Below are positions 10,248-36,596 of a DNA stretch of 44,992 nucleotides, in pieces. The notes under the pieces were generated by a model. That model worked only from the letters and a program-made list of their open reading frames with translations. It was not told the origin of the DNA and searched no databases. The DNA comes from a phage, in the sequence record NC_110914.1, one strand, 5' to 3'. The position numbers were made by a program, and so were the translations under genes. How positions within the stretch are numbered: the first letter of the stretch is position 1; every line of letters begins with the position of its first letter.

Positions 10248-11015
10248 ATGTGGATTGGCATAATTAGCCTGTTTCCTGAAATGTTCCGCGCAATTACCGA
10301 TTACGGGGTAACTGGCCGGGCAGTTAAAAATGGCCTGCTGAGCATCCAGAGCTGGAGTCCTCGCGACTTCACGCATGACCGGCACCGTACCGTGGACGAT
10401 CGTCCTTACGGCGGCGGACCGGGGATGTTAATGATGGTGCAACCTTTGCGGGACGCCATTCATGCAGCAAAAGCCGCGGCGGGTGAAGGCGCAAAGGTGA
10501 TTTATCTGTCACCACAGGGACGCAAGCTTGATCAAGCGGGCGTCAGCGAACTGGCAACGAATCAAAAATTGATTCTGGTGTGCGGTCGCTACGAAGGTAT
10601 AGATGAGCGCGTGATCCAAACCGAAATTGACGAAGAATGGTCAATCGGCGATTACGTTCTCAGTGGTGGTGAGTTACCAGCAATGACGCTGATTGACTCC
10701 GTTTCCCGGTTTATTCCGGGAGTACTGGGACATGAAGCCTCGGCAACGGAAGATTCCTTTGCTGAAGGATTGCTGGATTGCCCGCACTATACGCGGCCTG
10801 AGGTGTTAGAAGGGATGGAAGTTCCGTCAGTGTTACTGTCGGGCAACCATGCCGAGATACGTCGCTGGCGTTTGAAACAGTCGCTGGGCCGTACCTGGCT
10901 TAGAAGACCTGAACTTCTGGAAAACCTGGCTCTGACTGAAGAGCAAGCAAGGTTGCTGGCGGAGTTCAAAACGGAACACGCACAACAGCAACATAAACAT
11001 GATGGGATGGCGTAA
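10248..11015 (+). CDS. trmD: tRNA (guanine37-N1)-methyltransferase TrmD
   Basis: 255-aa ORF recognised as TrmD. Confidence 0.95.
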
Positions 11016-11053
11016 GCCCCCGAGATATCAGTTTACCCAGGATAAGAGATTAA

Positions 11054-11404
<351 letters not shown>

Positions 11405-11438
11405 TAACGTATTCGCGCTACATCCAAAGCGTGTTATG

Positions 11439-11472
11439 AAACAAGGGGTTAGCGAATTGCTAACCCCTTTTT
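11439..11472 (+). terminator. rplS operon rho-independent terminator
   Basis: ggggttagcgaattgctaacccc hairpin followed by ttttt immediately after rplS. Confidence 0.75.
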
Positions 11473-11547
11473 CATTGGTGGTGGCGGCAAATTGGCGGCA
11501 GAGATTGGCGCGATGGCGACAGATATAAAAAACCTGCCGAAGCAGGT

Positions 11548-11766
11548 TCAAAGCCAAAGTTGCTGTTGTTGGTTTCTGATGGGATGTGGCGGAGCAGGAT
11601 CAACAGTGCCCGGTTTCACAATGAATCTTGATAGCGTCTCAAAAGTGATAAATGTACATCCGCAATTTATGTTCTGGCATTGGTGATAACGTTCTTTCGT
11701 TTCGGTGCTAAGGTACCGGCTAGTACGAGCATGTGCGGCGTTTTGGCATAACGGGCAGTGCATCAT
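11548..11766 (-). CDS. ogr: Late gene transcriptional activator Ogr (186 B homologue), C4 zinc finger
   Basis: 72-aa ORF MMHCPLCQNAAHARTSRYLSTETKERYHQCQNINCGCTFITFETL..., strongly similar to remembered P2 Ogr. Confidence 0.9.
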   Translation of the reverse strand: MMHCPLCQNAAHARTSRYLSTETKERYHQCQNINCGCTFITFETLSRFIVKPGTVDPAPPHPIRNQQQQLWL

Positions 11767-11841
11767 AATTTTTCCCCCTGCTGGCGCGTTTGAGGGAATA
11801 ATAAACTCTAAAATTGCATTTGCAAGTTATGATTTGCTTTT

Positions 11842-13011
11842 TTATATTTCGCTTTCCTCTGAGCTGTACTCTATATCAGATAGCTTAACCTCAAGCTCTA
11901 ACCCCGTCGTGAAGCCACTATTATTCAGAATGTGAGTTACTTTACTGATTAACCATACCTGTTCGTCTATTACGCGCTTAAAGCCCGACACACGTACAGG
12001 CGTCTCAGGAAATAAATCCGCTCGCCCTAGCGCCAGTGTGATTGAAAACTCCGCAACGCCTCGCTGCAGTTTATCCCACTTAGCCTGAGCGGCACGCATC
12101 GCCTGCGCCTTTGATGCGTAGACCGTTGTCAGCGCCAGCACGTTATCGGCTTCACCGGCCATATACTCACCCTCGCGAGCCTCCTGCTCTTTTTTGGCCT
12201 TTGTCTTTTTGCTGACAGGCTTTGCTTTCGGGTGCTCCAGTGCGCGTAGGTGTTTCTCTTTTGGCTGGCGTTTCAGCGTCACTTTTTGCTTTTGCGGCTT
12301 CGGGTCTTTGGTGTGCAACCATTTTGCCGTTACGCCGGTATAAGCCCCACGGTCGGCAATAGCAAATTGATGACGGTCACCATTGCTACGGGGCAGCGTC
12401 ATTTGCGGGATGGGTCTGCCGCTGGCCGTCATCGCACTACCGGCTTTCAGAAACAGCAATTTCCCCGCTTTCACTGACACCGCAGCTCCGTTTCGGTCAG
12501 CTAGCCGGGTCAGAAACACCGCGTCGGACTCCTGCGACTGGTCGATATGCGGTACCGGGATTTTTTTCAGTGAATCAGCGACACTGGCCGTCAGTTTATT
12601 GCGTTTTGCGATGGTGCTGACCAGTTCTCCGATGGTGGTGTCATGCCATGACTCTTCACGCCTGGAATTTAGCGTGCCGCGAAAGTCCGCGCTGCGCGCC
12701 CGGATGGTCAGGGTGTCAGGCGCTCCCCGGTGCTCAATCTCATCGACCGTAAAATCCCCCTTATTCAGCAACGCCGAGCCCTGCCAGCCAAGCCACAGCG
12801 TCAGCACTGCCCCGCGCAGGGGTAACTCAACTTTCCCGTCGGTATCATCAAGCTCAATATCGAGCTGGTCAGCCTCAAAACCCCGGTTATCGGTCATGGT
12901 GAGAGAAATCAATCGGTCACTAAAATTGCTGGTAATGTCCTGGCTGTTCAGCGTCAACATAAATGCCGGTGCAAGGCTGGCACCGGCGTCAATTGCCATC
13001 CCCGTTATCAT
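11842..13011 (-). CDS. D: Tail protein gpD (late control D)
   Basis: 389-aa ORF at the P2 gpD position; size and order match D-U-T-E-FII-FI. Confidence 0.85.
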   Translation of the reverse strand: MITGMAIDAGASLAPAFMLTLNSQDITSNFSDRLISLTMTDNRGFEADQLDIELDDTDGKVELPLRGAVLTLWLGWQGSALLNKGDFTVDEIEHRGAPDTLTIRARSADFRGTLNSRREESWHDTTIGELVSTIAKRNKLTASVADSLKKIPVPHIDQSQESDAVFLTRLADRNGAAVSVKAGKLLFLKAGSAMTASGRPIPQMTLPRSNGDRHQFAIADRGAYTGVTAKWLHTKDPKPQKQKVTLKRQPKEKHLRALEHPKAKPVSKKTKAKKEQEAREGEYMAGEADNVLALTTVYASKAQAMRAAQAKWDKLQRGVAEFSITLALGRADLFPETPVRVSGFKRVIDEQVWLISKVTHILNNSGFTTGLELEVKLSDIEYSSEESEI

Positions 13012-17028: not shown

Positions 17029-18234
17029 TTAGCTGTTGACCGATTCGGCCAGATCCACCAGATATTTATCGGTGATACGCTGGCGCAGGGTTAGGCTTTC
17101 CAGTGGTGGAACCGGTGTATAGTCGTAGTCGATATACAGTTTCCCGGCCTTGAGGGTTTCCTTATCGTTCGATTCCTCGTCGAACCAGCATTCACCGTCC
17201 ACGATGTAGCCGTTTGATTTCAGCTCGCGGAATTTGGCGTTAATGCCGTCGACAATGTCACGGATAAGTGATGCGGTGATGGGCTTATCGACCGCCCACA
17301 TGTGCGCCTCGGCCATCGTGTCGGCCAGCACCTGCGCGGTGCGGGTGTAGTTCTCAAACAGGAAAAGCGGGTCATCAGAGCAGGTGCGGTTACCCCAAAA
17401 GCGGAAGCCATCCTTACGCACCAGTGTCGTGACCCCGGCCTCGTTGAGCAGATCAGCATCGGTGCCGGATGCCTGCAAATCCCAAAACACTGACGCACTG
17501 ATGCCGGTAACACCCTGCACGCCGACGTTAGACAGGGTTTTGTGCCAGCCGACGGTCTGGTCGATATAGGCACGCAGGCCGAGTGCGCGCGCAGTTGCGT
17601 ATGCCGGTGCGGTGGCGTTTGTGGTGGTATCCCATGCAAGGAAATCAGGCCAGATGACCATCAGCTCGCGCTGGCTGAAATTCTCGCGATAGGCCATCGC
17701 CTCGGAAATGGTTTTACAACCCCATGCGCTGACATAACCAAACGCGCGCAGGCTGATACAGACCGAAGCAAGTGCGACTGCGACCTCTTTGGTATCGAGA
17801 CCCGGCACGCCGAGAATGCGCGGCTTAACGCCGGTGACTGCTTCGGCAGTCAACAGCGCCTTGATGCCGGTATATTTACCGTTCTCATCCGTGCCGCCGA
17901 TGATATTGGAAATGGTCTGCGCTTCGGCGTCTTCTCCGGTACCTTCGGCAACACGCACGACAACTGTGACGGGTTTTGACTGGTCGGCGATAGCCTGCAG
18001 GGAGGCAGACAACGTGCCTTTTTTACCGGCTTTTGCAATGGCGCTCTGCACATTGGTAATCAATACCGGTTCGTTGAGGGGGAATGTCTCGGCATCCGCA
18101 TCGCTGGCCGTGCAGACCATGCCGACAATTGCGGTTGCAACAGTGGAAATGACGCGGGTGCCGTCGTTAATCTCAAGCACCTGCACGCCGTGGTGAAAAT
18201 CACTCATCCGGTTAACTCCGTGGTTAGTGGGCAA
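17029..18234 (-). CDS. FI: Tail sheath protein gpFI
   Basis: 401-aa ORF at the P2 FI position. Confidence 0.9.
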   Translation of the reverse strand: MPTNHGVNRMSDFHHGVQVLEINDGTRVISTVATAIVGMVCTASDADAETFPLNEPVLITNVQSAIAKAGKKGTLSASLQAIADQSKPVTVVVRVAEGTGEDAEAQTISNIIGGTDENGKYTGIKALLTAEAVTGVKPRILGVPGLDTKEVAVALASVCISLRAFGYVSAWGCKTISEAMAYRENFSQRELMVIWPDFLAWDTTTNATAPAYATARALGLRAYIDQTVGWHKTLSNVGVQGVTGISASVFWDLQASGTDADLLNEAGVTTLVRKDGFRFWGNRTCSDDPLFLFENYTRTAQVLADTMAEAHMWAVDKPITASLIRDIVDGINAKFRELKSNGYIVDGECWFDEESNDKETLKAGKLYIDYDYTPVPPLESLTLRQRITDKYLVDLAESVNS

Positions 18235-18237
18235 GTG

Positions 18238-18552
18238 TTATTGTCCTGGCTGGTCTGTTGAGGGGCTATTTGTCAGTGTTGGGCGATGTCTGACACATTG
18301 AGACATCAGCAACGGATGCGGGAAATTGTTTGTATAGCGTTGAGATACCCGAGGCGATCCAGTTTCCAGACCACAAGCGTATCGCCCTCTGACAAGGTTC
18401 TGAGTAACCTCTTTAGCCCCGGCCAGTCTGATTGATGTTTTGCCGCTGATTTTATCTTCGAAAATCAGCTCACATCCTGCGCACTCCAGTTCATTTCGCT
18501 GTAATGCGGTGTTCTGGTCATTTGTTGATACACGTACATAACCGATAAACAT
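18238..18552 (-). pseudogene. Hin/Gin/Pin-family serine DNA invertase remnant (frameshifted and 3'-truncated)
   Basis: Minus-strand translation gives MFIGYVRVSTNDQNTALQRNELECAGCELIFEDKISGK (catalytic Ser motif); the conserved GDTLVVWKLDRLG block is only in another frame, and the rest of the ~190-aa protein is absent before FI. Confidence 0.75.
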
Positions 18553-18618
18553 GAGAAATAACCCGGTAAAAAGTCGGAAACATGCCAGCTGAACGGAATA
18601 TCTGCATTTTCTAAAAGG

Positions 18619-18644
18619 TTGGTTTGGGAGAAGCGGCAAAACGG
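18619..18644. repeat. Left inverted repeat / crossover site of the invertible tail-fibre segment
   Basis: ttggtttgggagaagcGgcAaaacgg is the reverse complement of 20138..20163 with 2 mismatches. Confidence 0.7.
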
Positions 18645-18986
18645 AATGTAGGTAACGGGCAAAACCAAATTCCGGATATGGCGGCGTTTGCCAGTTCACT
18701 TTCATCAACGGGTTTTCAAAAACTCCCTTCAGGTCTGATTATTCAGTGGGGTATTGTCAGTGGAGCATCAAACTATACGGTGACTTACCCGGTAACATTC
18801 CCAAATCGTTCACTTGCGCTGTTGGCTGTGCCACATACAACGTCGGTGGCTGGTATATCTGCAATGGGCATAGCGAACTGTTCTGATATCAGCAAATCAC
18901 AGTTCTATATAATTGTTGGCGGTATATCTCAGGGAGAAATTGTCAAATATGAAAGGTCCTGTTTTTGGGTAGCAATCGGTGTATAG
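18624..18986 (+). CDS. Alternative (silent) tail-fibre C-terminal cassette Sv'
   Basis: Translation GEAAKRNVGNGQNQIPDMAAFASSLSSTGFQKLPSGLIIQWG... parallels the active H C-terminus; frame opens inside the inverted repeat, no own start. Confidence 0.65.
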   Translation: MGEAAKRNVGNGQNQIPDMAAFASSLSSTGFQKLPSGLIIQWGIVSGASNYTVTYPVTFPNRSLALLAVPHTTSVAGISAMGIANCSDISKSQFYIIVGGISQGEIVKYERSCFWVAIGV

Positions 18987-18994
18987 GTATATCT

Positions 18995-19390
18995 ATGATT
19001 TATTTCTCAAAATCGACTAATGGTTTTTTCTTTGATGGTATAAACAGCGACATGCCTGCTGACATTGTTGAGATAAGTACAGACTTATACAATGAATTAA
19101 TTGCCGGACAGCAGGAAGGGGGGAAATTAATCACGTCAGATGAAAATGGTTTACCGGTACTGAAATCTCCGGCGATTGATTATGTCGCACGTGCGGAAAA
19201 TCAGCGAATGCAGTTACTTGCTCATGCCGATAATGTCACAGCTGACTGGCGAGTGGAATTAATGCTTGGTGATATCAGCAGTACAGATAAAGAAAAACTA
19301 TCCGCCTGGATGAACTACAAAAAAGAAGTAAAAGCCGTCGACACTTCGACGGCTCCTGAGATTAGCTGGCCTGAGTTACCGGAGGCGTAG
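18995..19390 (+). CDS. Alternative tail-fibre assembly protein (Tfa')
   Basis: C-terminus ...WMNYKKEVKAVDTSTAPEISWPELPEA resembles the Tfa/gpG family; start trimmed to MIYFSKS...; 3' ends overlap the other tfa. Confidence 0.7.
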   Translation: MIYFSKSTNGFFFDGINSDMPADIVEISTDLYNELIAGQQEGGKLITSDENGLPVLKSPAIDYVARAENQRMQLLAHADNVTADWRVELMLGDISSTDKEKLSAWMNYKKEVKAVDTSTAPEISWPELPEA

Positions 19391-19805
19391 GCCATTCAAT
19401 ATCTGGCGCACTGGAAGTATTGACCTGTTCCAGTGCGTCCAGGTAATCCAGCCACAAATTATATTGCGCCAGTTCGTCACCGTTCAGACGACCAATAGCT
19501 GCTTTACCGGGCCATTGCTTACTGTTCATGTAGTCGTTTGCCTGGTTGATTTTTTTCTGCTTTTCGGCGTTCGCAGCTTCCACTTCTTCATCGTGACTTA
19601 ACGGTGGTAAATCCACCCATACAGGCTGCCCATTTTCATCAGCGCCGCGGGTTTGCCCTTCTGGTGGCATTCCTGAATATGTGAGAAAAACGTCATCAGA
19701 AACACCTACTAAGTCATCTGGCCAGGTGTTGGCTGCTATGTACAGCGACTTCATTTCTTCAGGGTAAAAACCTAGAGTTGATGGAGAAAAATAATAAAGA
19801 GTCAT
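19362..19805 (-). CDS. G: Tail-fibre assembly protein (gpG-like Tfa), active orientation
   Basis: 147-aa ORF immediately downstream of H; C-terminus ...LEQVNTSSAPDIEWPTPP typical of Tfa. Confidence 0.8.
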   Translation of the reverse strand: MTLYYFSPSTLGFYPEEMKSLYIAANTWPDDLVGVSDDVFLTYSGMPPEGQTRGADENGQPVWVDLPPLSHDEEVEAANAEKQKKINQANDYMNSKQWPGKAAIGRLNGDELAQYNLWLDYLDALEQVNTSSAPDIEWPTPPVTQAS

Positions 19806-19806
19806 A

Positions 19807-20769
19807 TCAGCTTCCTATTGCGAACCAGCGAAAGACATAAACCCCAGATGTTGCATCACAGCGCATCAGGAAATTTGTTTTTGTAAAACTTCCTGCCGCT
19901 CCCGCAATAACCTTTCCACCACCATTGTCGTAAGAGACTACAACCTGATGGCAAATGTTCGGAAAAGAAACCGAGAAGTTAATTGCATTTCCCGTATTAC
20001 CTGTCGCACCCACTCCGGCTGTTGCTGATCCCCATTGAATGATTAAGCCGCTAGGTAGTTTTTGATATCCAGCAGCACCCGTTACAGACAAAAATGAATT
20101 TATATCTGGAATCTGGTTTTCCCCTGTTCCGACATCCCGTTTCGCTGCTTCTCCCAAACCAAGGTTTTTAAGAACGTCGCCGGCCAGTCCCGCGTCAACC
20201 ATTTCTTTCAGAGCATTAGCGATTAACGGGTACTGCTTGTGTGGATTGGCGGCCTCAACATGTTTTTTCATCAGGTCATCAGCATATCCTTTCACCTCGA
20301 TAATCTTGTCGTCGACATACTGGCGCGTTGCCAGCACGACTGCCGGGTCGATTTTCAGGGTGATTGCCGATGTGCTCGACACAATCAGAATCATGCGAAT
20401 GGTCTGCGTGCGACCGCTTCCCTCCTGCAGTTGTGGCTTGTAGGTCTCCGGACAGTTCGCCACGGCAATCAGAATACCATCATCGTCATAGAGACCAATC
20501 TCGCGGATCCAGAAACCACCTTCATTCTCGGGAATAATCTGTTCCGCGATAATCTGACTGGTATTGGCCGGGTCAACGGTCAGCAGGTTCAGCGGCGCGA
20601 TGCGTTTCTGGTTAATGAGCTTCGTCTGCGCCGGGTCAGGGGTCGGCAACGTACCATTCGCATCACCGACGGCCATCTGCGTCAGGTTGAGTTTGGTACC
20701 GAGTGCCGCCGCGTTCGCCAGCCGCGCCGCGCCCTGATTGGTCAGAATGGCAAAATATTTTGCGGTCAT
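19807..20769 (-). CDS. H: Tail fibre protein gpH (short variant)
   Basis: 320-aa ORF with P2 gpH-like N-terminal region (MTAKYFAILTNQGAARLANA...) and a variable C-terminus inside the invertible segment. Confidence 0.85.
   Translation of the reverse strand: MTAKYFAILTNQGAARLANAAALGTKLNLTQMAVGDANGTLPTPDPAQTKLINQKRIAPLNLLTVDPANTSQIIAEQIIPENEGGFWIREIGLYDDDGILIAVANCPETYKPQLQEGSGRTQTIRMILIVSSTSAITLKIDPAVVLATRQYVDDKIIEVKGYADDLMKKHVEAANPHKQYPLIANALKEMVDAGLAGDVLKNLGLGEAAKRDVGTGENQIPDINSFLSVTGAAGYQKLPSGLIIQWGSATAGVGATGNTGNAINFSVSFPNICHQVVVSYDNGGGKVIAGAAGSFTKTNFLMRCDATSGVYVFRWFAIGS
20138..20163. repeat. Right inverted repeat / crossover site of the invertible segment
   Basis: Reverse complement of the left repeat; adjacent near-palindrome aaaaaccttggttt resembles hix/gix-type sites. 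Confidence 0.7.
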
Positions 20770-22281: not shown

Positions 22282-22629
22282 TTAACTCAGTGAAACAGTG
22301 GTTGAAACTGACGCACCGGTATCGGTACGCATCCCGGTAATATCGACATACATCTCGCCAGCGTCGCCGGCCTCAAAGCTGATGGATGTAAGCCTGATGC
22401 GCGGTTCCCACTTCTGGATAGCCGAATAGCAAGCCACCATAATTTGCAGCCTGAGCGCCGGGTTTTGCGGCATATCAATCAGCGCCGACAGAAGCGAGCC
22501 ATATTCACGACGCATCACCCGCGAGCCGACCGGCGTCAGCAGAATATCGCGCATGCTCTGGCTGATATGCTCGGTATCGCTGATGCCAAGGCCGGTATTT
22601 CGGTTCATCCCCTGATAGCGCGCCGTCAT
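22282..22629 (-). CDS. W: Baseplate protein gpW
   Basis: 115-aa ORF at the P2 gpW position. Confidence 0.85.
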   Translation of the reverse strand: MTARYQGMNRNTGLGISDTEHISQSMRDILLTPVGSRVMRREYGSLLSALIDMPQNPALRLQIMVACYSAIQKWEPRIRLTSISFEAGDAGEMYVDITGMRTDTGASVSTTVSLS

Positions 22630-23267
22630 AACGGTGCCCCCGTTTGCCCGCCGCTGTCGCCCGGGTGTTTATGGGTGTGGAGTACCTTGCCATTAGACGA
22701 CAGTGACCCGCCGGTATGTTCGATATTGCCGCTCATCTTGCCGCCTTTCTGCACCTCAAGCGTCGCCGTCGTTAGCTTATTGGTGCAAATCACCTCCGGG
22801 GTGTCGAGGGTGATACTGGTCGAGGCTTTCACCAGTACCAGCGGTACGGTTGCGGTGATGGACTCCGATGCCGTCACGTCGGCCGTTTTTATGCCGCTGA
22901 CCGTCAGCGCGCCGGTTTCGGGCTCGTACTCAATGACCGCACCATCAGGGAAAGCCACATGCCACGCATCCGCCGAGGCAGACGGGGCGGGGTTATCGTC
23001 GGAGAAAATACCCGGCAGCACGAAAGCGGTATCAAGCTCGCCACCGATTGCCAGCAGCAGAACCTGCTCACCGACCGAGGGAGCCCACCACGTCCGCGAA
23101 CGACCGGCGCGGGTGGTCAGCCAGTTCAGCCATGTAGTCTGGATCCCGCCGCTTTGTACGCGGCACAGCCCCTGCACAGTATCGACCTCAGTCACCACGC
23201 CTGAGCGGATGAGGTTGCGAATGGCACGTGCTAACTCTTGAATGGTGTTTAATGTGTTCATGAACAA
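22626..23267 (-). CDS. V: Baseplate spike protein gpV
   Basis: 213-aa ORF at the P2 gpV position. Confidence 0.85.
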   Translation of the reverse strand: MFMNTLNTIQELARAIRNLIRSGVVTEVDTVQGLCRVQSGGIQTTWLNWLTTRAGRSRTWWAPSVGEQVLLLAIGGELDTAFVLPGIFSDDNPAPSASADAWHVAFPDGAVIEYEPETGALTVSGIKTADVTASESITATVPLVLVKASTSITLDTPEVICTNKLTTATLEVQKGGKMSGNIEHTGGSLSSNGKVLHTHKHPGDSGGQTGAPL

Positions 23268-23398
23268 AGAATGCCGATTGTTAAAGCCAAGAGCAAAACG
23301 ATTCAGCTGTATGCTCTTCTACACAATTCGGTGTGCATTCATGTATCATTTGAGTGTTGACTCATTCGAAAATCACACAAAACATATGGCAGGTAGTA

Positions 23399-24235
23399 AT
23401 GAAAAGAACTTCATCTTTTAGGCGTACAATAAGCAATATGAAATATATTATAGGTATCTTTTTTTTATACTCCGGGCTTATAGTAGGGTTGTCTGTTTAT
23501 AATGATAACTACAACTCAAAATTCATGGAGAATTTTCTTGTTAATGCAAATTCTTCAATTTTAGACTTTCTTGTTTTGGGTGTGATTCTTTACTATTTTG
23601 AAAATAAAAGGCAAAATAAAGATGCTATTCACGAACTAATTGAAGATCTTGAAAATCTGGCAAAGCATTCTTCTGCAGAACTGAATATTATGAAGATAAA
23701 AATCATACGTCAGTTAAATGCTAAAGGAATATATAACATTCAAGTTCCAAGGATTGAACTTGATAAAATGTCCACTATCAAATATTTACATTTTAAAGAC
23801 GCTGACTTAACCGGCTTGAATATGAGCGAATCATACATTAGAGATTGTTCTTTCGATAATTGCACAATTCAAGCTCTAAATATTACAGGCAATAGAGTTA
23901 AGAGTGTTAAATTCAAAAACTGCAAGCTAAGAAATATTAAGGCATTTAATACATGTTTTCAAAATGTCACTTTCGAAAACTGCAGTTTTGAAGGGGGGTA
24001 TTTTACAGATAGCGAAATGAAAAGCTGCATATTAAAAGGATGTGATTTTAAATCCGTTACTTATGAAGGGGCTAACATGCGGAATGCAAATCTATTAAAT
24101 TCAATTAACATTAGCGTTAAAGAACTTGTTAAAGCAAAAAACATAGATTATTTAATTTGTGATGAGCAAATTAAAAATGAAATAAGAAAGGAAAACCCAG
24201 CAATAAAAATATCGAGAGGAATAATACGAGGTTAG
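23399..24235 (+). CDS. Membrane-anchored pentapeptide-repeat protein (cargo gene between V and S)
   Basis: AT-rich ORF opposite to flanking late genes. N-terminal hydrophobic segments (YIIGIFFLYSGLIVGLSVY; LDFLVLGVILYYF), then pentapeptide-like repeats (CSFDNCTIQALNITGNRVKSVKFKNCKLRNIKAFNTCFQNVTFENCSFEGGYF...). ORF track starts at GTG 23354; an ATG at about 23399 (MKRTSSFRR...) is more plausible. Confidence 0.6.
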   Translation: MKRTSSFRRTISNMKYIIGIFFLYSGLIVGLSVYNDNYNSKFMENFLVNANSSILDFLVLGVILYYFENKRQNKDAIHELIEDLENLAKHSSAELNIMKIKIIRQLNAKGIYNIQVPRIELDKMSTIKYLHFKDADLTGLNMSESYIRDCSFDNCTIQALNITGNRVKSVKFKNCKLRNIKAFNTCFQNVTFENCSFEGGYFTDSEMKSCILKGCDFKSVTYEGANMRNANLLNSINISVKELVKAKNIDYLICDEQIKNEIRKENPAIKISRGIIRG

Positions 24236-24325
24236 GGAATCGAACCCAACTCAGTGGGCACGCCCACCTAGACACCAGTCCACCTCTATCGCTGAGTTAT
24301 ATAATAATTCTCAGCGAATCCAAAG

Positions 24326-24781
24326 TCAATGGCGTTGACATAAAGCATCCATAATTAAACTCTCAACTTTTTGTAAGTCTGATGAAGAGTATCCGAGCAA
24401 CGGTCGCGCCTCGTACTGCACATCCCGGCTGTTGCGGTTTGGCCGGTCTTTTAGGCCGTACTGATGCACCCGCGCCATGCGCTGCACCTTGCCGGTAAAC
24501 TCCACCACCGCCGCACTGTCGCTGCCTTTGGCTTTCATAAAGCGACTGGTGCGCAGTTTGGCGAACATTTCACGTTTAATCCGACCTTTCTTGCTCCGCA
24601 CCGGCTGGCGCTTTCGTGCCGCATACGGGGTGCCGTCGGGTGCCTGCTGGCGCTTGATACGCTGTTGCTGACTGGTACGCAGCTTTTTCGCAACCTCAAC
24701 CGCCATTTGCCGACGTGCCGCCGGTGACAGGCTGGCAATCAGACCGGCAAGGCGTTCCTGCAGCGCGGTTAATTCACTCAT
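24326..24781 (-). CDS. S: Tail completion protein gpS
   Basis: 151-aa ORF at the P2 gpS position. Confidence 0.8.
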   Translation of the reverse strand: MSELTALQERLAGLIASLSPAARRQMAVEVAKKLRTSQQQRIKRQQAPDGTPYAARKRQPVRSKKGRIKREMFAKLRTSRFMKAKGSDSAAVVEFTGKVQRMARVHQYGLKDRPNRNSRDVQYEARPLLGYSSSDLQKVESLIMDALCQRH

Positions 24782-25250
24782 CCCACTTACTCACCAGTTC
24801 GCCGTTAACGTACAGCTCGACCGGGCGCGTCACCGGCTCAGGCAGTGGCTGCTCAGGGGCATAGCTGACGTGCAGCGCGCCGTCGACCTCTTTGACGAGC
24901 GTGCGCTCGGTGAGCCTCAGGCTGATACTGATATCGAGCGAATCGTCGTTATTGATATCAATAATCCAGGTGAATCCTTTTTCCCGCCCGTCGTCGGTGG
25001 TCATAATGTCCGGCTGATGTTCACGCAGCCACGCCTGCACCGGCACGAATATCAAATCAAGGTCACCGGTGAAGTCGGTCACCACCACGTTAAGCACGTA
25101 CACCTTTTCAAACGACAGCGAGCTCGCCAGTCGGGAATCGGTATGGCCGTTGTCGGCAAAAAGGCGCAGCATATCGGGATTATTTCGGAGCTGCGGCACG
25201 GCGTTAATCAGCGCTTTGCGCAGGCTTTTGTGCTTCTGCATCGAGTTCAT
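24774..25250 (-). CDS. R: Tail completion protein gpR
   Basis: 158-aa ORF at the P2 gpR position. Confidence 0.8.
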   Translation of the reverse strand: MNSMQKHKSLRKALINAVPQLRNNPDMLRLFADNGHTDSRLASSLSFEKVYVLNVVVTDFTGDLDLIFVPVQAWLREHQPDIMTTDDGREKGFTWIIDINNDDSLDISISLRLTERTLVKEVDGALHVSYAPEQPLPEPVTRPVELYVNGELVSKWDE

Positions 25251-32037: not shown

Positions 32038-33084
32038 ATGGGTAAACAAAAATCCCGTAAAGCCAACGCACAAAAGGCCAGCAAACCACAACAACTGACC
32101 GCCAGCGCACCGCCAAAAACGACAGCGTTCACCTTCGGCGAGCCGGTGCCGGTGCTCGATAAGCGCGACATTCTGGATTACGTCGAGTGCATCAGTAACG
32201 GCAAATGGTACGAGCCGCCGGTCAGCTTCTCAGGGCTGGCAAAGAGCCTGCGCTCTGCCGTGCATCACAGCTCGCCAATTTATGTTAAGCGTAACGTGCT
32301 CGCGAGCACCTACATTCCGCACCCGTTGTTATCCCGTCAGGATTTCAGCCGCTTTGCGCTCGATTATCTGGTGTTCGGTAACGCCTTTCTTGAGCAGCGC
32401 CACAGCGTCACCGGCCAGTTAATCAAACTGCTGGCCTCGCCAGCCAAATACACCCGACGCGGAGTCGACGATTCGATTTTCTGGTTTGTGGAAAACTTCA
32501 CCCAGCCGCACGAGTTCGCGCCTGATACCGTGTTTCACCTGCTGGAGCCCGACATTAATCAGGAGATTTACGGCCTGCCCGAATATCTCAGCGCGCTAAA
32601 TTCCGCCTGGCTGAATGAATCCGCGACGCTGTTCCGCCGCAAGTATTATCAGAACGGCGCGCACGCGGGTTACATCATGTATGTGACTGACCCGGCGCAG
32701 AGCGCGACCGACGTCGAATCGCTGCGCGAGGCGATGCGCAACTCAAAAGGGCTCGGCAACTTTAAGAACCTGTTTTTCTACGCTCCCGGCGGAAAACCGG
32801 ACGGCATCAAAATCGTGCCACTGAGCGAGGTCGCCACAAAGGATGACTTTTTCAACATCAAGAAGGCCAGTGCCGCCGATCTGATGGACGCGCACCGCGT
32901 ACCGTTCCAGCTCATGGGCGGCAAGCCCGAGAATATCGGTTCACTCGGTGATGTTGAGAAGGTGGCAAAGGTATTTGTGCGCAACGAGCTGTCGCCGCTA
33001 CAGGACCGGTTCAGGGAGGTAAATGACTGGCTCGGCATGGAGGTCATCAGATTCAAAGAGTACACCCTCGACAACCCAGAATAA
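32038..33084 (+). CDS. Q: Portal protein gpQ
   Basis: 348-aa ORF directly after P; P2 gpQ-like size and position. Confidence 0.9.
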   Translation: MGKQKSRKANAQKASKPQQLTASAPPKTTAFTFGEPVPVLDKRDILDYVECISNGKWYEPPVSFSGLAKSLRSAVHHSSPIYVKRNVLASTYIPHPLLSRQDFSRFALDYLVFGNAFLEQRHSVTGQLIKLLASPAKYTRRGVDDSIFWFVENFTQPHEFAPDTVFHLLEPDINQEIYGLPEYLSALNSAWLNESATLFRRKYYQNGAHAGYIMYVTDPAQSATDVESLREAMRNSKGLGNFKNLFFYAPGGKPDGIKIVPLSEVATKDDFFNIKKASAADLMDAHRVPFQLMGGKPENIGSLGDVEKVAKVFVRNELSPLQDRFREVNDWLGMEVIRFKEYTLDNPE

Positions 33085-33161
33085 CTTAGGCCGCCACAAT
33101 CTCTGCGCTCATTATTGAAGATGCAATCTGCGAAAGCTATAGTGCATCGAATATCAAAACA

Positions 33162-34166
33162 ATGGGCGCGGAGATTAATATTTTGGAAACTGATTTTAAA
33201 ATAACCCTCGAAGGTTTCGCTACTGAGCAAGAAGCAAATAATATCGGTAATTTCACACTAGAAGCTATCCGAGCTTTAACAAAAAATCTCAATCTTGATA
33301 TCTCCAAATTAAAATGCGTGATTGTTTCCTATAACTTCAGTGAAGCTCTTCAAAAGGTAACATCCTCTTACCAACACAAATCCCCTAGTTCATTTACCAA
33401 TAGCAAACAGGGCGCAGCCGTCGGGCAGTTAGTAACAAAAATTGGCAATGATGGGCTATGTGAAGAATATACCCTTGTGCTATCGATTGATTTTTTTGTT
33501 GAGCTTTTCAATGATGGTAGCTTCTTAAAACTGAAAGAAGAAGGATACCTCGCAGTCATCCATCGCATTCACCATGAATTAGTGCACGTACATGAAAAAA
33601 ACTTACTAACATGCTTAGCCCAAAACTTTACAGTCAACGAGTATGGTAGCGCGCTTCTTATCTCAGCCACGCGTGCATGGTCTGAATATCTCGCTAATTA
33701 CATGTCTTCGGGGTCTGCCCCTCAAGAAACTATCGATTTATTTTTAGAGAATCTTGACACTGTTGTAAATGAAGTATCTGACGAGATTGAAAAACTCATC
33801 TGGGGTTATAAGTACGGTAATATTTCTCTGAATGACATGTATCTCGAAGTAAAAAAACGTATCAGGCTAATCATCAACTCTTATGCTTATGCGATGGGTT
33901 ATGTCCATTCTCTAAACATCAATATTAAAGAATACGATCCAAAGCTATCCCTTACACTATCCAACTCAAAGATAAGATATCAATTATCAGAATTAGGCAT
34001 TGCTTTTCAGAATCTTTATGGGAAGTTTAATGACCAGCACATTACAGGTTTTGGTGATTTTCGGGAGATAACAATAATCATTGATGAAATATTCAAGCAG
34101 TTTGGGCTTGTTTTAGAGTGTCCCGATTGGTCTGGCGACGGTGAACTCTACATACATGTAAATTAG
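33162..34166 (+). CDS. Hypothetical HExxH-motif protein (cargo gene between portal and cos)
   Basis: 334-aa AT-rich ORF with HRIHHELVHVHE (HExxH) and a Glu about 20 residues downstream (NEYG), suggestive of a zinc metallopeptidase fold. No recognised homologue from memory. Confidence 0.55.
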   Translation: MGAEINILETDFKITLEGFATEQEANNIGNFTLEAIRALTKNLNLDISKLKCVIVSYNFSEALQKVTSSYQHKSPSSFTNSKQGAAVGQLVTKIGNDGLCEEYTLVLSIDFFVELFNDGSFLKLKEEGYLAVIHRIHHELVHVHEKNLLTCLAQNFTVNEYGSALLISATRAWSEYLANYMSSGSAPQETIDLFLENLDTVVNEVSDEIEKLIWGYKYGNISLNDMYLEVKKRIRLIINSYAYAMGYVHSLNINIKEYDPKLSLTLSNSKIRYQLSELGIAFQNLYGKFNDQHITGFGDFREITIIIDEIFKQFGLVLECPDWSGDGELYIHVN

Positions 34167-34386
34167 TTTAATCATAGTAGAAACATAATTAGCAGTTTGA
34201 ATCCTGCCACTCCTGTAAAGCCGCTGCTCCTGGTGGCTTTTCCATGCACACCACCATCACGCATCAGATGCGTCTCACGCGCACGAACACACCCGACCAC
34301 CAACGAACCAGCAGCGACCACGACAGCGCCATCACGACGCGCTCAGAGGATAATTTTTATTATTACGCATCACTGCTGGCGCGCAA

Positions 34387-34405
34387 TGCTTTCCCCGCCA
34401 CGCCT
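34387..34405. other. Candidate cos site (19-nt cohesive end)
   Basis: Reverse complement GGCGTGGCGGGGAAAGCAT is 17/19 identical to the remembered P2 cohesive end GGCGAGGCGGGGAAAGCAC, in a GC-rich non-coding gap pointing toward Q as in P2. Confidence 0.6.
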
Positions 34406-34641
34406 GCCCGCTTTATGGGGCGGTTTTAATGCAGTTGCATGACCACTCTGGATCCCCGCCAGCTCTTGCGGCGCACGTACAAAACGGGTAACCCCGGCGC
34501 ATGCAGAACCATGCACCTGTTGCATGCACAGCTTATTTATTGATAAATCACCTTAAATTTACAAAAATTACGGACATTGATTCTTTCCAAACATGATAGC
34601 CTCTCGATAATTATCGAGCCTATTTTTGAACGGAGAAAGAT

Positions 34642-35583
34642 ATGCAAGGTGAAGTTGACGAACAGCAACCCAATGAGATTATGTCGGAGTTTGGATACTA
34701 TCCAGTAGAAGTTAACATTGAGACTGAACAATTTTCTTTGCTTACTTTACCTGGTCTCAATGAGAAAGTGGAGCGTGTTAATAATGATAAAAACGTTGTG
34801 AAAGGTTGGATATACCCTGGAAACCAAGATGTATATAACCTTAATGGTGGCATATCCACAATGCCTTATAGTCACCGAGTATTCAGTATGCCCAAAACGC
34901 ACACACTAAAATTAAAAAATACATCCTCGTTAGAAACTCTCAACTTTATTGTGTGGTGCCTTTCTTTTTTCAAGGGAATAAGATTGACAACCACTGACGC
35001 TGGTTTTTTAGATGCAACCACTATCAAGCCCACTAAGTTAACCGACTTTATTCTCGTTGGATGCTCTGAAAAAGAAGTCATAGAACTGGCTCTTAATTAT
35101 ATAAATGGCAAACATAAGGATGCGCACTCCCCCAAAAGAATTGCGGCAGTGGTGCATGCACTATTCTTATCTCAAAACCCACAATACCTTTCTTTTGAAA
35201 AATTCCAGTACCTTTACATGGCACTTGATGGGTGCTTTGCTTTGTCGTGGGCTGAGCATGACAAGGCTCCTGATAAAAAACCGCCAAATCATTACAAGCG
35301 ATTAAAGTGGATGTGCAAAATTTATGGGTTATCAATCCCCACATGGGTGTCAGGTAAAAAAAACATTTCTGGCATCCGCAATGATAATTTTCATGAGGCT
35401 ATTTTTTTTGGTCAACCGCTTGGTTTCTCAAGTGTTAACAACAGTCAATATGGTAACGATATATTGCTGCAAATGCAGGCACTGGTATGTCGCCTATTAG
35501 CGGCAATACTGTCGGTTAATGATTGCAGTTATCTCAAATCTTCGGTCAACTCACGAGATTACCATTCATTAAAAATAAATTAA
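34642..35583 (+). CDS. Hypothetical protein with R-x4-H motif (cargo gene at the P2 old/tin position)
   Basis: 313-aa AT-rich ORF with its own AT-rich upstream region and a GGAG-type RBS; contains ...GIRNDNFHEAIFF... (R-x4-H, possibly HEPN-like). No recognised homologue from memory. Confidence 0.55.
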   Translation: MQGEVDEQQPNEIMSEFGYYPVEVNIETEQFSLLTLPGLNEKVERVNNDKNVVKGWIYPGNQDVYNLNGGISTMPYSHRVFSMPKTHTLKLKNTSSLETLNFIVWCLSFFKGIRLTTTDAGFLDATTIKPTKLTDFILVGCSEKEVIELALNYINGKHKDAHSPKRIAAVVHALFLSQNPQYLSFEKFQYLYMALDGCFALSWAEHDKAPDKKPPNHYKRLKWMCKIYGLSIPTWVSGKKNISGIRNDNFHEAIFFGQPLGFSSVNNSQYGNDILLQMQALVCRLLAAILSVNDCSYLKSSVNSRDYHSLKIN

Positions 35584-35657
35584 TGCTAACGCCTCGCGGT
35601 GCTCGTTGTTCAACCCCCGCCAGTACTGAAAGCGAGTTTCAGAACCGGCGGCGTTTG

Positions 35658-35867
35658 CTATCGTCGACGTGGTGGTGGTGCGTATTGTTTCGACCTGCTG
35701 ATGCTATCCAGCTTGCCGTAATTATCCCTGACTATTTCGGCACACCCGACCAGCTCTGCGGGTGTCAAATTCTCATTGACCATTATCTGCTGCAAACGAT
35801 GAACGATGGCCATCAGTTTGATGCTTTTAGTTTTGTGTTGCGGTATTTCACCTGGTAGTCGATGCAT
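35658..35867 (-). CDS. Small hypothetical protein (weak call)
   Basis: 69-aa ORF between two ~50-bp direct repeats; protein-like composition but no supporting motif. Confidence 0.25.
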   Translation of the reverse strand: MHRLPGEIPQHKTKSIKLMAIVHRLQQIMVNENLTPAELVGCAEIVRDNYGKLDSISRSKQYAPPPRRR

Positions 35868-36066
35868 ATTATCACCCTCAATGAATTTTAATCAGTGCCG
35901 TCAAAACGCCACTATAAAACCATCTCAGGTCATGCCTCATTAATCATGGGCGTGTCATCAATAGCACATTGAGAAATTTTGAAAGGCAGGACTTAAGCCT
36001 CGTGGGCTCGTTACTCAACCCCGCCGACGCAAAAAGCTAGTTTTTGCGCCAGCACGGTTATTATGT

Positions 36067-36297
36067 TTAACGCCAGCTATCGTCTTCCCAAATCTCTTGT
36101 AATATGCTGCCTAATGTTTCTCTGTCCGCCTCTTTATCGAATCCGATAGCCTCTACACCAGTCATTGACCCTTTCTTAACGTTAACTTTTGTTGCAGGAA
36201 AAACGCATTGTACTCGATGTGTTATTTCATTTTGAAAAGCATCAATGATCTGTTGCCCTAATTTTTGCTCTTTATCCAACGTGATATTGATTCTCAT
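36067..36297 (-). CDS. DinI-like protein (C-terminal-domain equivalent of 186 Tum)
   Basis: 76-aa ORF MRINITLDKEQ...RVQCVFPATKVNVKKGS...ETLGSILQEIWEDDSWR resembling remembered DinI; LexA box upstream of the two-ORF unit. Confidence 0.75.
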   Translation of the reverse strand: MRINITLDKEQKLGQQIIDAFQNEITHRVQCVFPATKVNVKKGSMTGVEAIGFDKEADRETLGSILQEIWEDDSWR

Positions 36298-36300
36298 AAT

Positions 36301-36483
36301 CTAATCAGCCTTATAAAAATTATCATCTTCGGTTTCGTTATTTTCGCTGTTTGCTAGGTCTGCAATGAGAGTGAGCGCGAGCTTTAAGTCTGATGGCTTG
36401 CAGTTTGCAATCAGAGATACCTCGGCAATAAATTGCACACAAGCCCACTTTTGCTGCGTTCGGCTGAAATGTTCGCCAACCAT
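36301..36483 (-). CDS. Small protein upstream of and in frame with the DinI-like ORF (possible N-terminal part of a Tum-like antirepressor)
   Basis: 60-aa ORF separated from the DinI-like ORF only by an in-frame TAG; GGGAGG RBS before its ATG. Confidence 0.5.
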   Translation of the reverse strand: MVGEHFSRTQQKWACVQFIAEVSLIANCKPSDLKLALTLIADLANSENNETEDDNFYKAD

Positions 36484-36504
36484 GAAGTCCCTCCCATAGG
36501 GTTA

Positions 36505-36520
36505 CTGTATATTTATACAG
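36505..36520. promoter_or_regulatory. LexA box overlapping the promoter of the Tum-like module
   Basis: Perfect CTGTATATTTATACAG (CTGT-N8-ACAG) about 20 nt upstream of the 36483 start, overlapping a TTGCCA ... TATAAAT promoter-like element on the minus strand. Confidence 0.75.
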
Positions 36521-36596
36521 TAGCACGTATTGGCAAAAGATGGGAAGAAAAAAAACGAATAGAGCGATTGCTGTATGTGCATGATATGGATATGAA

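Follow-up and report, generated by a model that had tools for sequence, protein, structure and literature searches.

Why would a prophage of the P2 family, of the 186 (Eganvirus) type, carry between its baseplate gene V and its tail gene S a gene for a membrane-anchored pentapeptide-repeat protein that lies antisense to both neighbors? We address this question in phage sequence record NC_110914.1 (the window: the whole analyzed stretch of 44,992 nucleotides, or nt), in which an original prediction, made from the letters alone, had singled out the open reading frame (ORF) at 23354-24235 on the plus strand. That prediction was correct about the gene, but missed a conserved tRNA-like element and a candidate promoter that follow its stop codon. 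We propose that gene and element form a self-contained accessory module in an inter-operon slot of the P2 orf30 type, in which a membrane-protein gene faces a convergent, promoter-equipped tRNA-like element. Our preferred explanation, which we hold tentatively, is that the protein is a lysogen-expressed inner-membrane effector for phage exclusion, restrained by the convergent tRNA-like RNA. Phage exclusion is our best-supported guess as to the module's function, and it draws on context: the slot, the mobile elements that carry the family, and the defense genes nearby. The three core features are as follows.

23399-24235, plus strand: coding sequence (CDS) of the two-transmembrane (two-TM) pentapeptide-repeat protein, 837 nt, 278 amino acids (aa) plus stop (ORF list, RefSeq start, Pfam)
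24226-24290, minus strand: conserved tRNA-like element, ~65 nt, overlapping the CDS stop codon (conservation, strict-pattern linkage, covariance model)
24301-24329, minus strand: candidate sigma-70 promoter TTGACT-17-TATTAT, pointing into the tRNA-like element (scan, 10/12 matches)

Across alleles, the coding sequence is less conserved than the DNA that directly follows its stop codon. Two blocks, CGAGG(Y)TAGGGAATCGAACC and GAC(R)CCAG..C...CTCTAT, do not vary at all, and between them lies a hairpin that retains its pairing through a complete change of sequence. The minimum-free-energy (MFE) fold of the minus strand is a cloverleaf with a 5-bp closing stem (GAGGU/ACCUC), a mini D-arm (GAC-UGGU-GUC), the variable covarying hairpin, and a T-arm (GGG-UUCGAUU-CCC). 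In nine distinct enterobacterial copies, 83.5% of cells are paired, compared with 48-57% in slid controls, and the covariation score is reached by only 1 of 500 shuffles, with four compensatory pairs that all fall in the central hairpin of these nine related sequences.

The element is also tightly linked to the gene. A strict pattern, the only one informative for linkage, finds seven loci in 2.9 million viral contigs, every one of them immediately 3' of a homologue of the window protein (52-100% identity). In Psychrobacter and Acinetobacter plasmid homologues with 25-30% protein identity, the 11-mer GGAATCGAACC is still found no more than about 8 nt past the stop codon, and two metagenome homologues have it overlapping the ORF's 3' end. 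Read-through of the element by the ORF, where it happens, accounts for odd C-terminal tails (e.g. ...EGIEP or ...EVRESNPTQ). A covariance model built from the nine enterobacterial copies gives one match in the window, at 24226-24290 on the minus strand (85.5 bits, by construction), and recovers full-length matches at the expected place in two distant loci (L034, 26.8 bits, E value (E) 3e-5; L033, 17.4 bits, E 0.019). The same model has no match in six loci with alternative cargo (L013-L018), in P2, or in the housekeeping-type loci described below. In one IMG/VR contig (L021, positions 2731-2760), a tandem duplication of the element's 5' part (GAGGTTAGGGAATC) immediately precedes the intact copy.

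Two other identities for the element were considered and set aside. A real tRNA or transfer-messenger RNA (tmRNA) gene is called by ARAGORN neither in the window nor in seven related loci, and Rfam models come nowhere near threshold: the tRNA-Sec model produces a structurally sensible but non-significant alignment at 14.2 bits (E 2.3), where the gathering score is 47. Nor is the element likely to be a decaying attachment-site (att) relic: both the 11-mer and its placement survive down to 25-30% identity, in homologues carried by plasmids and prophages that lack integrases. Relaxed DNA patterns, applied to viral and metagenome contigs, are swamped by tRNA-Trp, tRNA-Sec, tRNA-Asp and unlinked tRNA-like sequences, and add nothing to the association. 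One scan returned 24 tRNA-Sec genes together with 58 sequences from metagenome contigs (L158-L270), mostly GC-rich and from soil, that share the layout T-arm, hairpin, GACRCCAG. These score 16-35 bits with the covariance model, are not tRNAs by ARAGORN, and do not lie beside pentapeptide genes; they may be unusual or degenerate tRNA-Sec-like genes.

We assign the element to the minus strand because its T-loop and UGGU motifs are canonical on that strand only, because the MFE is lower there in 13 of 13 sequences, because strand-specific G-U cells number 14 against 3, and because the candidate promoter that points into it is conserved. This promoter recurs in 11 of 13 diverged loci as a TTGAC(T/A) -35 hexamer, a 16-17 bp spacer, and a -10 hexamer with A2 and T6. 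The -35 hexamer is invariant across aligned alleles, and the distance from promoter to element is near-constant in the nine enterobacterial loci. A tRNA-like small RNA may be transcribed from 24301-24329. The stop codon of the gene for the tail protein gpS (TGA) lies inside the conserved -35 hexamer TTGACT. Between the element and this gene, at 24291-24315, lies an inverted repeat (GCTGAG-N13-CTCAGC) with the candidate -10 in its loop; since no U-tract comes after it on either strand, neither the cargo gene nor the S operon has a canonical terminator in this repeat.

The protein itself combines two TM helices with a pentapeptide-repeat domain, in the following order.

23444-23500, plus strand: TM helix 1 (TM1), residues 16-34 (Kyte-Doolittle window maximum 1.93; AlphaFold2 helix 3-34)
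23534-23596, plus strand: TM helix 2 (TM2), residues 46-66, FLVNANSSILDFLVLGVILYY (hydrophobicity, AlphaFold2 helix, conservation)
23597-23749, plus strand: predicted cytoplasmic helical linker, residues 67-117 (AlphaFold2, predicted local distance difference test score (pLDDT) 86-92)
23750-24112, plus strand: pentapeptide-repeat right-handed quadrilateral beta-helix, residues ~118-238, ~24 repeats (Pfam, AlphaFold2, Foldseek)

The original prediction of a membrane-anchored pentapeptide-repeat protein is borne out in both its parts. Segments 16-34 and 46-66 exceed Kyte-Doolittle values of 1.6-1.9 and are helical in the AlphaFold2 model, and three Pfam families score above their gathering cut-offs, placing the protein among the pentapeptide-repeat proteins: PF13599 (Pentapeptide_4; 60.4 bits, cut-off 38, E 1.9e-16), PF00805 (38.5 bits, cut-off 20.2) and PF13576 (36 bits, cut-off 27). 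The AlphaFold2 model, computed with the family alignment, has a mean pLDDT of 85.8 and a predicted template-modeling score of 0.71. It contains helices at residues 3-34, 42-87 and 93-108, the second of which carries TM2 on into the linker as far as residue 87, followed by a beta-helix at 118-235 (pLDDT 92-97) and a small C-terminal cap. Structure prediction, which had been put forward as a check for a right-handed quadrilateral beta-helix, therefore returns that fold with high model confidence, and a Foldseek search of the PDB finds MfpA, AlbG, Qnr and designed pentapeptide solenoids as best matches, with probability 1.0. A sequence profile search of the PDB gives matches in the repeat region only.

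Both the likely orientation and the likely working part of the protein can be read from its residues. TM1 is preceded by a basic N-terminus (K2, R3, R8, R9, K15) and TM2 is followed by a KRQNK stretch; under the positive-inside rule these suggest a topology of N-in, TM1, short periplasmic loop, TM2 and C-in, which would place the beta-helix in the cytoplasm. No block of the protein is more conserved than TM2, whose top-residue frequency is 0.93 among close homologues (set A1) and 0.51 among distant ones (set A2, ~20-40% identity), against 0.36-0.76 elsewhere. It bears a polar stripe (N49/S52-53/D56), and its residues N49, S53, D56, F57, L60, G61, V62, L64, Y65 and Y66 are invariant in A1, with D56 at least 90% conserved even in A2. 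Because TM2 is the most constrained part of the protein, it is likely a functional, and probably oligomeric, membrane element rather than a passive anchor. The repeat domain is basic (net charge +4, isoelectric point (pI) 8.7; family mean net charge +3.3), and is therefore compatible with nucleic-acid binding.

The reading frame of the original prediction is present in the ORF list, and only its start needs to be moved. The mechanical ORF begins with a GTG at 23354, whereas RefSeq begins the gene with an ATG at 23399, 7 nt downstream of an AGGT ribosome-binding site. Homologues keep the residues before Met14 (SFxRTISNMK), which makes the ATG at 23399 the better start. RefSeq names the product of the identical gene WP_001530900.1, "pentapeptide repeat-containing protein", 278 aa, and the identical sequence occurs in 14 of 5,426 complete E. 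coli genomes.

Where else does the family occur? A word-indexed search gives 29 clusters, all from Enterobacterales or unnamed assemblies except one from Paenibacillus, and exhaustive profile searches add many more full-length relatives of ~270-310 aa. The two-TM pentapeptide proteins of ~280 aa are thus a large, uncharacterized family; given its size, and given that the membrane protein HalA was already known, the original view that a membrane-anchored pentapeptide protein is unusual was overstated. The window protein matches PHROG 12514 (E 2e-142), which PHROG lists as of unknown function. Antisense in the slot between V and S, alleles of 52-81% identity occur in Salmonella, Enterobacter, Klebsiella and Yersinia prophages, so that with Escherichia the family occupies this slot in five genera. 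A longer, 339-aa form (P0005/P0007/P0008-type), with an extra N-terminal extension of ~60 residues before TM1, is found in the V-S slot in Enterobacter cloacae and in a lambdoid prophage of Citrobacter, where it sits at the cargo end and adjoins SRAP, umuDC and dinI.

Homologues of 25-30% identity reside on plasmids. The Psychrobacter copy lies between mobilization and replication genes, with a SinI restriction-modification system and an HNH endonuclease ~2.8-4.3 kb away, and the Acinetobacter copy is flanked by a RelE/ParE toxin-antitoxin pair and a restriction endonuclease. Further homologues lie on contigs beside MvaI/BcnI or Type I restriction-modification genes. The gene is a single-gene cassette in all loci examined, with only the genes for gpV, the baseplate spike, and gpS as neighbors in the window. 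Overall, the clade that bears the element is found only on prophages, on plasmids, and beside restriction-modification or toxin-antitoxin genes, and it undergoes rapid allelic turnover at a swap-prone slot. When genome contigs were searched with a profile of the close homologues, a single Paenibacillus locus was found, which is without the tRNA-like element.

The slot itself is defined by the following features.

22626-23261, minus strand: gpV baseplate spike, flank (Pfam Phage_base_V, Phage_spike and Apex; RefSeq annotation)
24326-24781, minus strand: gpS / 186 O virion morphogenesis (tail completion) protein, flank (Pfam Phage_tail_S, E 3.7e-36; RefSeq)
23262-24392, no strand assigned: cassette swapped relative to empty-slot 186-like prophages (BLASTN break-points)
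23308-23325, no strand assigned: TGT-N12-ACA dyad, likely Ogr/B-type late-activator site of the pV promoter (pattern match and position)
23320-23349, plus strand: weak promoter-like site TACACA-18-TATCAT, a candidate upstream of the CDS (consensus scan, 9/12 matches)

Pfam assignments of gpV and gpS confirm the position of the gene between the baseplate and tail genes, and its AT-richness is equally clear, with a guanine-plus-cytosine (GC) content of 29-31% against 57-64% in the flanks. A megablast search with 22600-24800 aligns P2-like phages of Klebsiella, Escherichia, Erwinia, Yersinia and Salmonella as well as 186, at 90-97% identity, over the flanks only. In P2, the annotated order is S, the terminator of the O operon, Orf30 (opposite strand, "nonessential"), the activator-binding site of pV, and the start of V, which is annotated also as a transcription start. 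The window has the corresponding geometry: the center of its TGT-N12-ACA dyad lies ~55 nt from the V ATG at 23261, as in the annotated P2 pV. The motif is not enriched in the window (6 found, 10.6 expected), so that its position alone is informative; this position makes 23308-23325 the likely late-activator site serving gene V. The cargo gene therefore lies between two late operons, and while it is indeed on the opposite strand, it is not inside an operon as had first been thought.

The correspondence with the P2 orf30 position, also part of the original prediction, holds up well. As in P2, the cargo follows the O-operon terminator and precedes the pV activator site, and it is AT-rich, non-essential and on the opposite strand. 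Unlike in the window, the P2 occupant is a different protein (Orf30, 261 aa) and P2 has no tRNA-like element by the covariance model; six matches were obtained by tblastn of the window protein against the phage collection, none of them to the P2 genome. Nor is P2 Orf30 similar to a 261-aa UPF0489 cargo protein of another E. coli prophage. We located the break-points by BLASTN against one empty-slot E. coli prophage and five alternative-cargo loci. Compared with the empty-slot prophage, which is 97% identical, homology stops at 23261 and restarts at 24393, and the swapped segment therefore takes in, besides the CDS and the tRNA-like element, the region upstream of V and the final 22 codons of gpS. 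These final codons (24324-24392) thus belong to the cassette and not to the conserved backbone.

A survey of this slot in related prophages, suggested at the outset, finds it empty in 186 itself, in PSP3 and relatives, and in many E. coli prophages. The V/S backbone is carried by 70 E. coli genomes, 14 of which have the window allele, and at least six alternative cassettes fill the slot in this species. The cargo of L013-L018 comprises a second pentapeptide allele; a PD-T4-7-like protein (PADLOC E 1.7e-9); a HIT-family protein with a 173-aa hypothetical partner; a UPF0489-domain protein; a pair of hypothetical proteins of 170 and 140 aa; and a 347-aa hypothetical protein on the late-gene strand. 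These findings support the view that the gene is foreign cargo in a known orf30-type slot. A 2026 preprint on more than 1,500 P2-like prophages describes defense hotspots inside the late genes, whereas the classic 2022 study describes the gpA-gpQ hotspot only.

The position of this classical gpA-gpQ hotspot is also occupied in the window, by a second AT-rich island (33100-36600, 39-44% GC) between the portal gene (32038-33084) and replication gene A (36597-38819, minus strand). None of its ORFs (334, 313, 111 and 193 aa) matches a Pfam or PADLOC model, and the island may hold an unrecognized defense system. Further dips in GC content, to 45-47%, occur at 11000-12000 and at 18000-20000, downstream of the baseplate genes; the latter is probably the tail-fiber region.

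How might such a module exclude phages? We propose that the polar residues of TM2 (N49, S52/53, D56) would give an oligomer of the protein its pore or ion path, and that the cytoplasmic beta-helix, on its helical stalk, would do the sensing or gating. Restraint would come from the tRNA-like RNA, which would either pair in antisense with the 3' end of the mRNA or bind the basic beta-helix as its ligand. Infection would then perturb the RNA or engage the helix, leading to membrane depolarization or a block to DNA entry, and the outcome would be phage exclusion through abortive infection or blocked entry. A narrower version of this scheme, which we regard as unlikely in its particulars, is a two-part immune module in which a tRNA-Sec-like mini-RNA binds the basic beta-helix and keeps a two-TM pore closed. 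By analogy, this would be the RNA counterpart of the gating of HalA by oligo-dA. Loss, cleavage or sequestration of the tRNA mimic upon infection, for example by phage tRNA-targeting nucleases, by tRNA-modifying or tRNA-repair enzymes, or through the shut-off of host transcription, would open the pore and abort infection. The mini-RNA module would in this case be a decoy-tRNA guard, stationed among the late genes of P2-like prophages and also on small plasmids.

Several observations weigh against an RNA-restrained exclusion effector. On the RNA side, the covariation rests on nine related sequences with compensatory changes in the central hairpin only, MFE z-scores are modest, and the -10 hexamers are weak in several loci. 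The element also lies on the same strand as the late S operon, and could therefore be a 3' processing or terminator structure of that operon. On the protein side, the similarity to HalA is confined to generic repeats, a scan of the window protein against PADLOC-DB v2 returns only a weak SLATT match and no validated defense family, and PHROG assigns the family no function. Finally, more distant two-TM pentapeptide homologues (~20% identity) lie in conserved, apparently housekeeping neighborhoods (pdxA-ksgA-mgtE...greA) and are without the tRNA-like element. Defense may thus not have been the ancestral function, which calls for caution when extending any function to the whole superfamily.

Among the alternatives, non-lethal superinfection exclusion fares best, though we think it unlikely. 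Here an inner-membrane protein would stop genome ejection or translocation, in the manner of P22 SieA or T4 Imm, with the beta-helix contacting injected proteins or DNA at the cytoplasmic face and the element only tuning expression. Such a role suits a prophage moron with a predicted inner-membrane topology and a cytoplasmic domain, in a slot that carries exclusion-type cargo; prophage superinfection exclusion proteins are reported to be typically small inner-membrane proteins (PMC10883804). However, strictly conserved polar and acidic residues in TM2, together with a structured-RNA partner, are more typical of regulated toxic effectors, and the family also occurs outside prophages, on small plasmids and beside restriction-modification genes.

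Somewhat less probable is a role in host physiology or lysogenic conversion, such as ion homeostasis or envelope signaling, inherited from housekeeping two-TM pentapeptide ancestors. The core-gene neighborhoods of distant homologues with the same architecture speak for this idea, as does the size of a family that is still unannotated. It fits poorly with the element-bearing clade, with its restriction to prophages, plasmids and the vicinity of restriction-modification or toxin-antitoxin genes, and its rapid allelic turnover at a swap-prone slot.

We give slightly less credence still to a toxin-antitoxin-like addiction module that would stabilize the prophage or plasmid and have no primary anti-phage role, with the membrane protein as toxin and the tRNA-like RNA as antitoxin, acting either antisense (type I-like) or by binding the protein (type III-like). 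As in type I and type III systems, a membrane protein would be paired with a convergent, small structured RNA that overlaps its 3' end, on prophages and plasmids; the element has its own conserved candidate promoter, the family is found on small plasmids, and linkage remains tight down to 25-30% protein identity. Type I toxins, however, are short peptides (<60 aa), far below a 278-aa protein with a 120-residue beta-helix, and the RNA has the shape of a tRNA, where such systems use a simple antisense hairpin or a repeat array. Addiction also overlaps with our preferred explanation, because many toxin-antitoxin systems also defend against phages. Last, a membrane-tethered DNA mimic of the Qnr/MfpA/McbG type that guards gyrase from quinolones or microcin-type toxins, the analogy drawn in the original prediction, is very improbable: the shared beta-helix fold, the Foldseek matches and weak NCBIfam matches to the Qnr and MfpA models are outweighed by scores of 27-28 bits against cut-offs of 240-360, by the basic charge of the domain where the mimics have an acidic surface, by a two-TM tether that would hold the protein away from nucleoid-bound gyrase, and by the lack of any identified Qnr-type loops or dimerization module.

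What is already known of this locus is that the gene is generically annotated and that the slot exists; the libraries and literature searched describe no function, defense assignment or RNA partner for the family. If the module does exclude phages, it would add a single-gene-plus-RNA system to the defenses of P2-like prophages, at the hardly studied orf30 slot, and would represent a second, architecturally inverted, pentapeptide-repeat-gated membrane effector after HalA. It would also provide a function for the large, unannotated family of two-TM pentapeptide proteins of ~280 aa. If the tRNA-like partner is real, it would constitute a new use of tRNA mimicry in bacterial conflict systems. Since clinical E. 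coli, Klebsiella, Enterobacter, Salmonella and Yersinia carry the gene, it could matter for host range in phage therapy.

Comparison with known families helps to place both halves of the module. The element resembles tRNA in its canonical T-arm (UUCGAUU loop) and acceptor-like closing stem, and tRNA-Sec in particular in a D-arm with the UGGU tetraloop typical of that tRNA; a relaxed form of its pattern also recovers true tRNA-Sec and tRNA-Asp genes. Unlike tRNA, it is only ~62-68 nt long, with a 5-bp acceptor stem, no variable arm, and no 7-nt anticodon loop, the loop of its central hairpin being 4-6 nt. The protein resembles SLATT proteins (e.g. the reverse transcriptase (RT)-associated SLATT of DRT systems) in two respects: it is carried by mobile elements, and its N-terminal part holds a pair of TM helices. 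The PADLOC RTasSLATT model matches with E 6e-5 when the long ORF is used and 0.0027 with the annotated start, but only 1 of 29 family members matches, and the window protein has no Pfam SLATT match. Because the other 28 members are without a match, we reject homology to SLATT and treat the match as compositional.

The pentapeptide-repeat proteins Qnr, MfpA, AlbG and McbG share with the window protein the right-handed quadrilateral beta-helix that is predicted here. They are soluble, acidic DNA mimics of ~180-220 aa, however, whereas the window protein is membrane-anchored and basic, and its NCBIfam scores place it outside the Qnr and MfpA families. The DNA mimicry of MfpA and Qnr reportedly depends on their acidic surface (Hegde et al. 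2005). Other pentapeptide proteins that the literature places in conflict systems are a phage anti-Sucellos protein and fusions of pentapeptide repeats to Orc/Cdc6 in predicted systems. Apart from HalA, the literature searched describes no membrane pentapeptide protein in defense or exclusion, and no tRNA-like partner for one.

The closest parallel is HalA, the effector of the Hailong system. HalA is described as joining a pentapeptide-repeat domain to an IRK-type channel that is blocked by oligo-dA made by HalB, with infection relieving this block. HalA is also the best NCBIfam match of the window protein, with NF051894 scoring 44.9 bits against a cut-off of 250 and aligning over profile positions 22-130 of 338, within the repeats only; the HalA structure (PDB 9nyi) likewise aligns with residues 82-155 only (E 9e-6). 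The order of domains is inverted: HalA has its repeats N-terminal and its K+ channel, which permeabilizes the membrane, C-terminal, whereas in the window protein the TM helices come first. The window protein has no IRK or ion-channel Pfam domain at E <= 0.1, and no HalB nucleotidyltransferase lies beside its gene, where the only neighbors are gpV and gpS. The window protein is therefore not a member of the HalA family, but by analogy it may work like HalA, which, being held inactive by a nucleic acid, sets a precedent for a nucleic-acid-gated pentapeptide effector. In place of enzymatically made DNA, the candidate partner here is a genome-encoded tRNA-like RNA. We regard this locus as a candidate Hailong-like system of inverted architecture, in which a membrane effector with a pentapeptide sensor would be controlled by a tRNA-like regulator.

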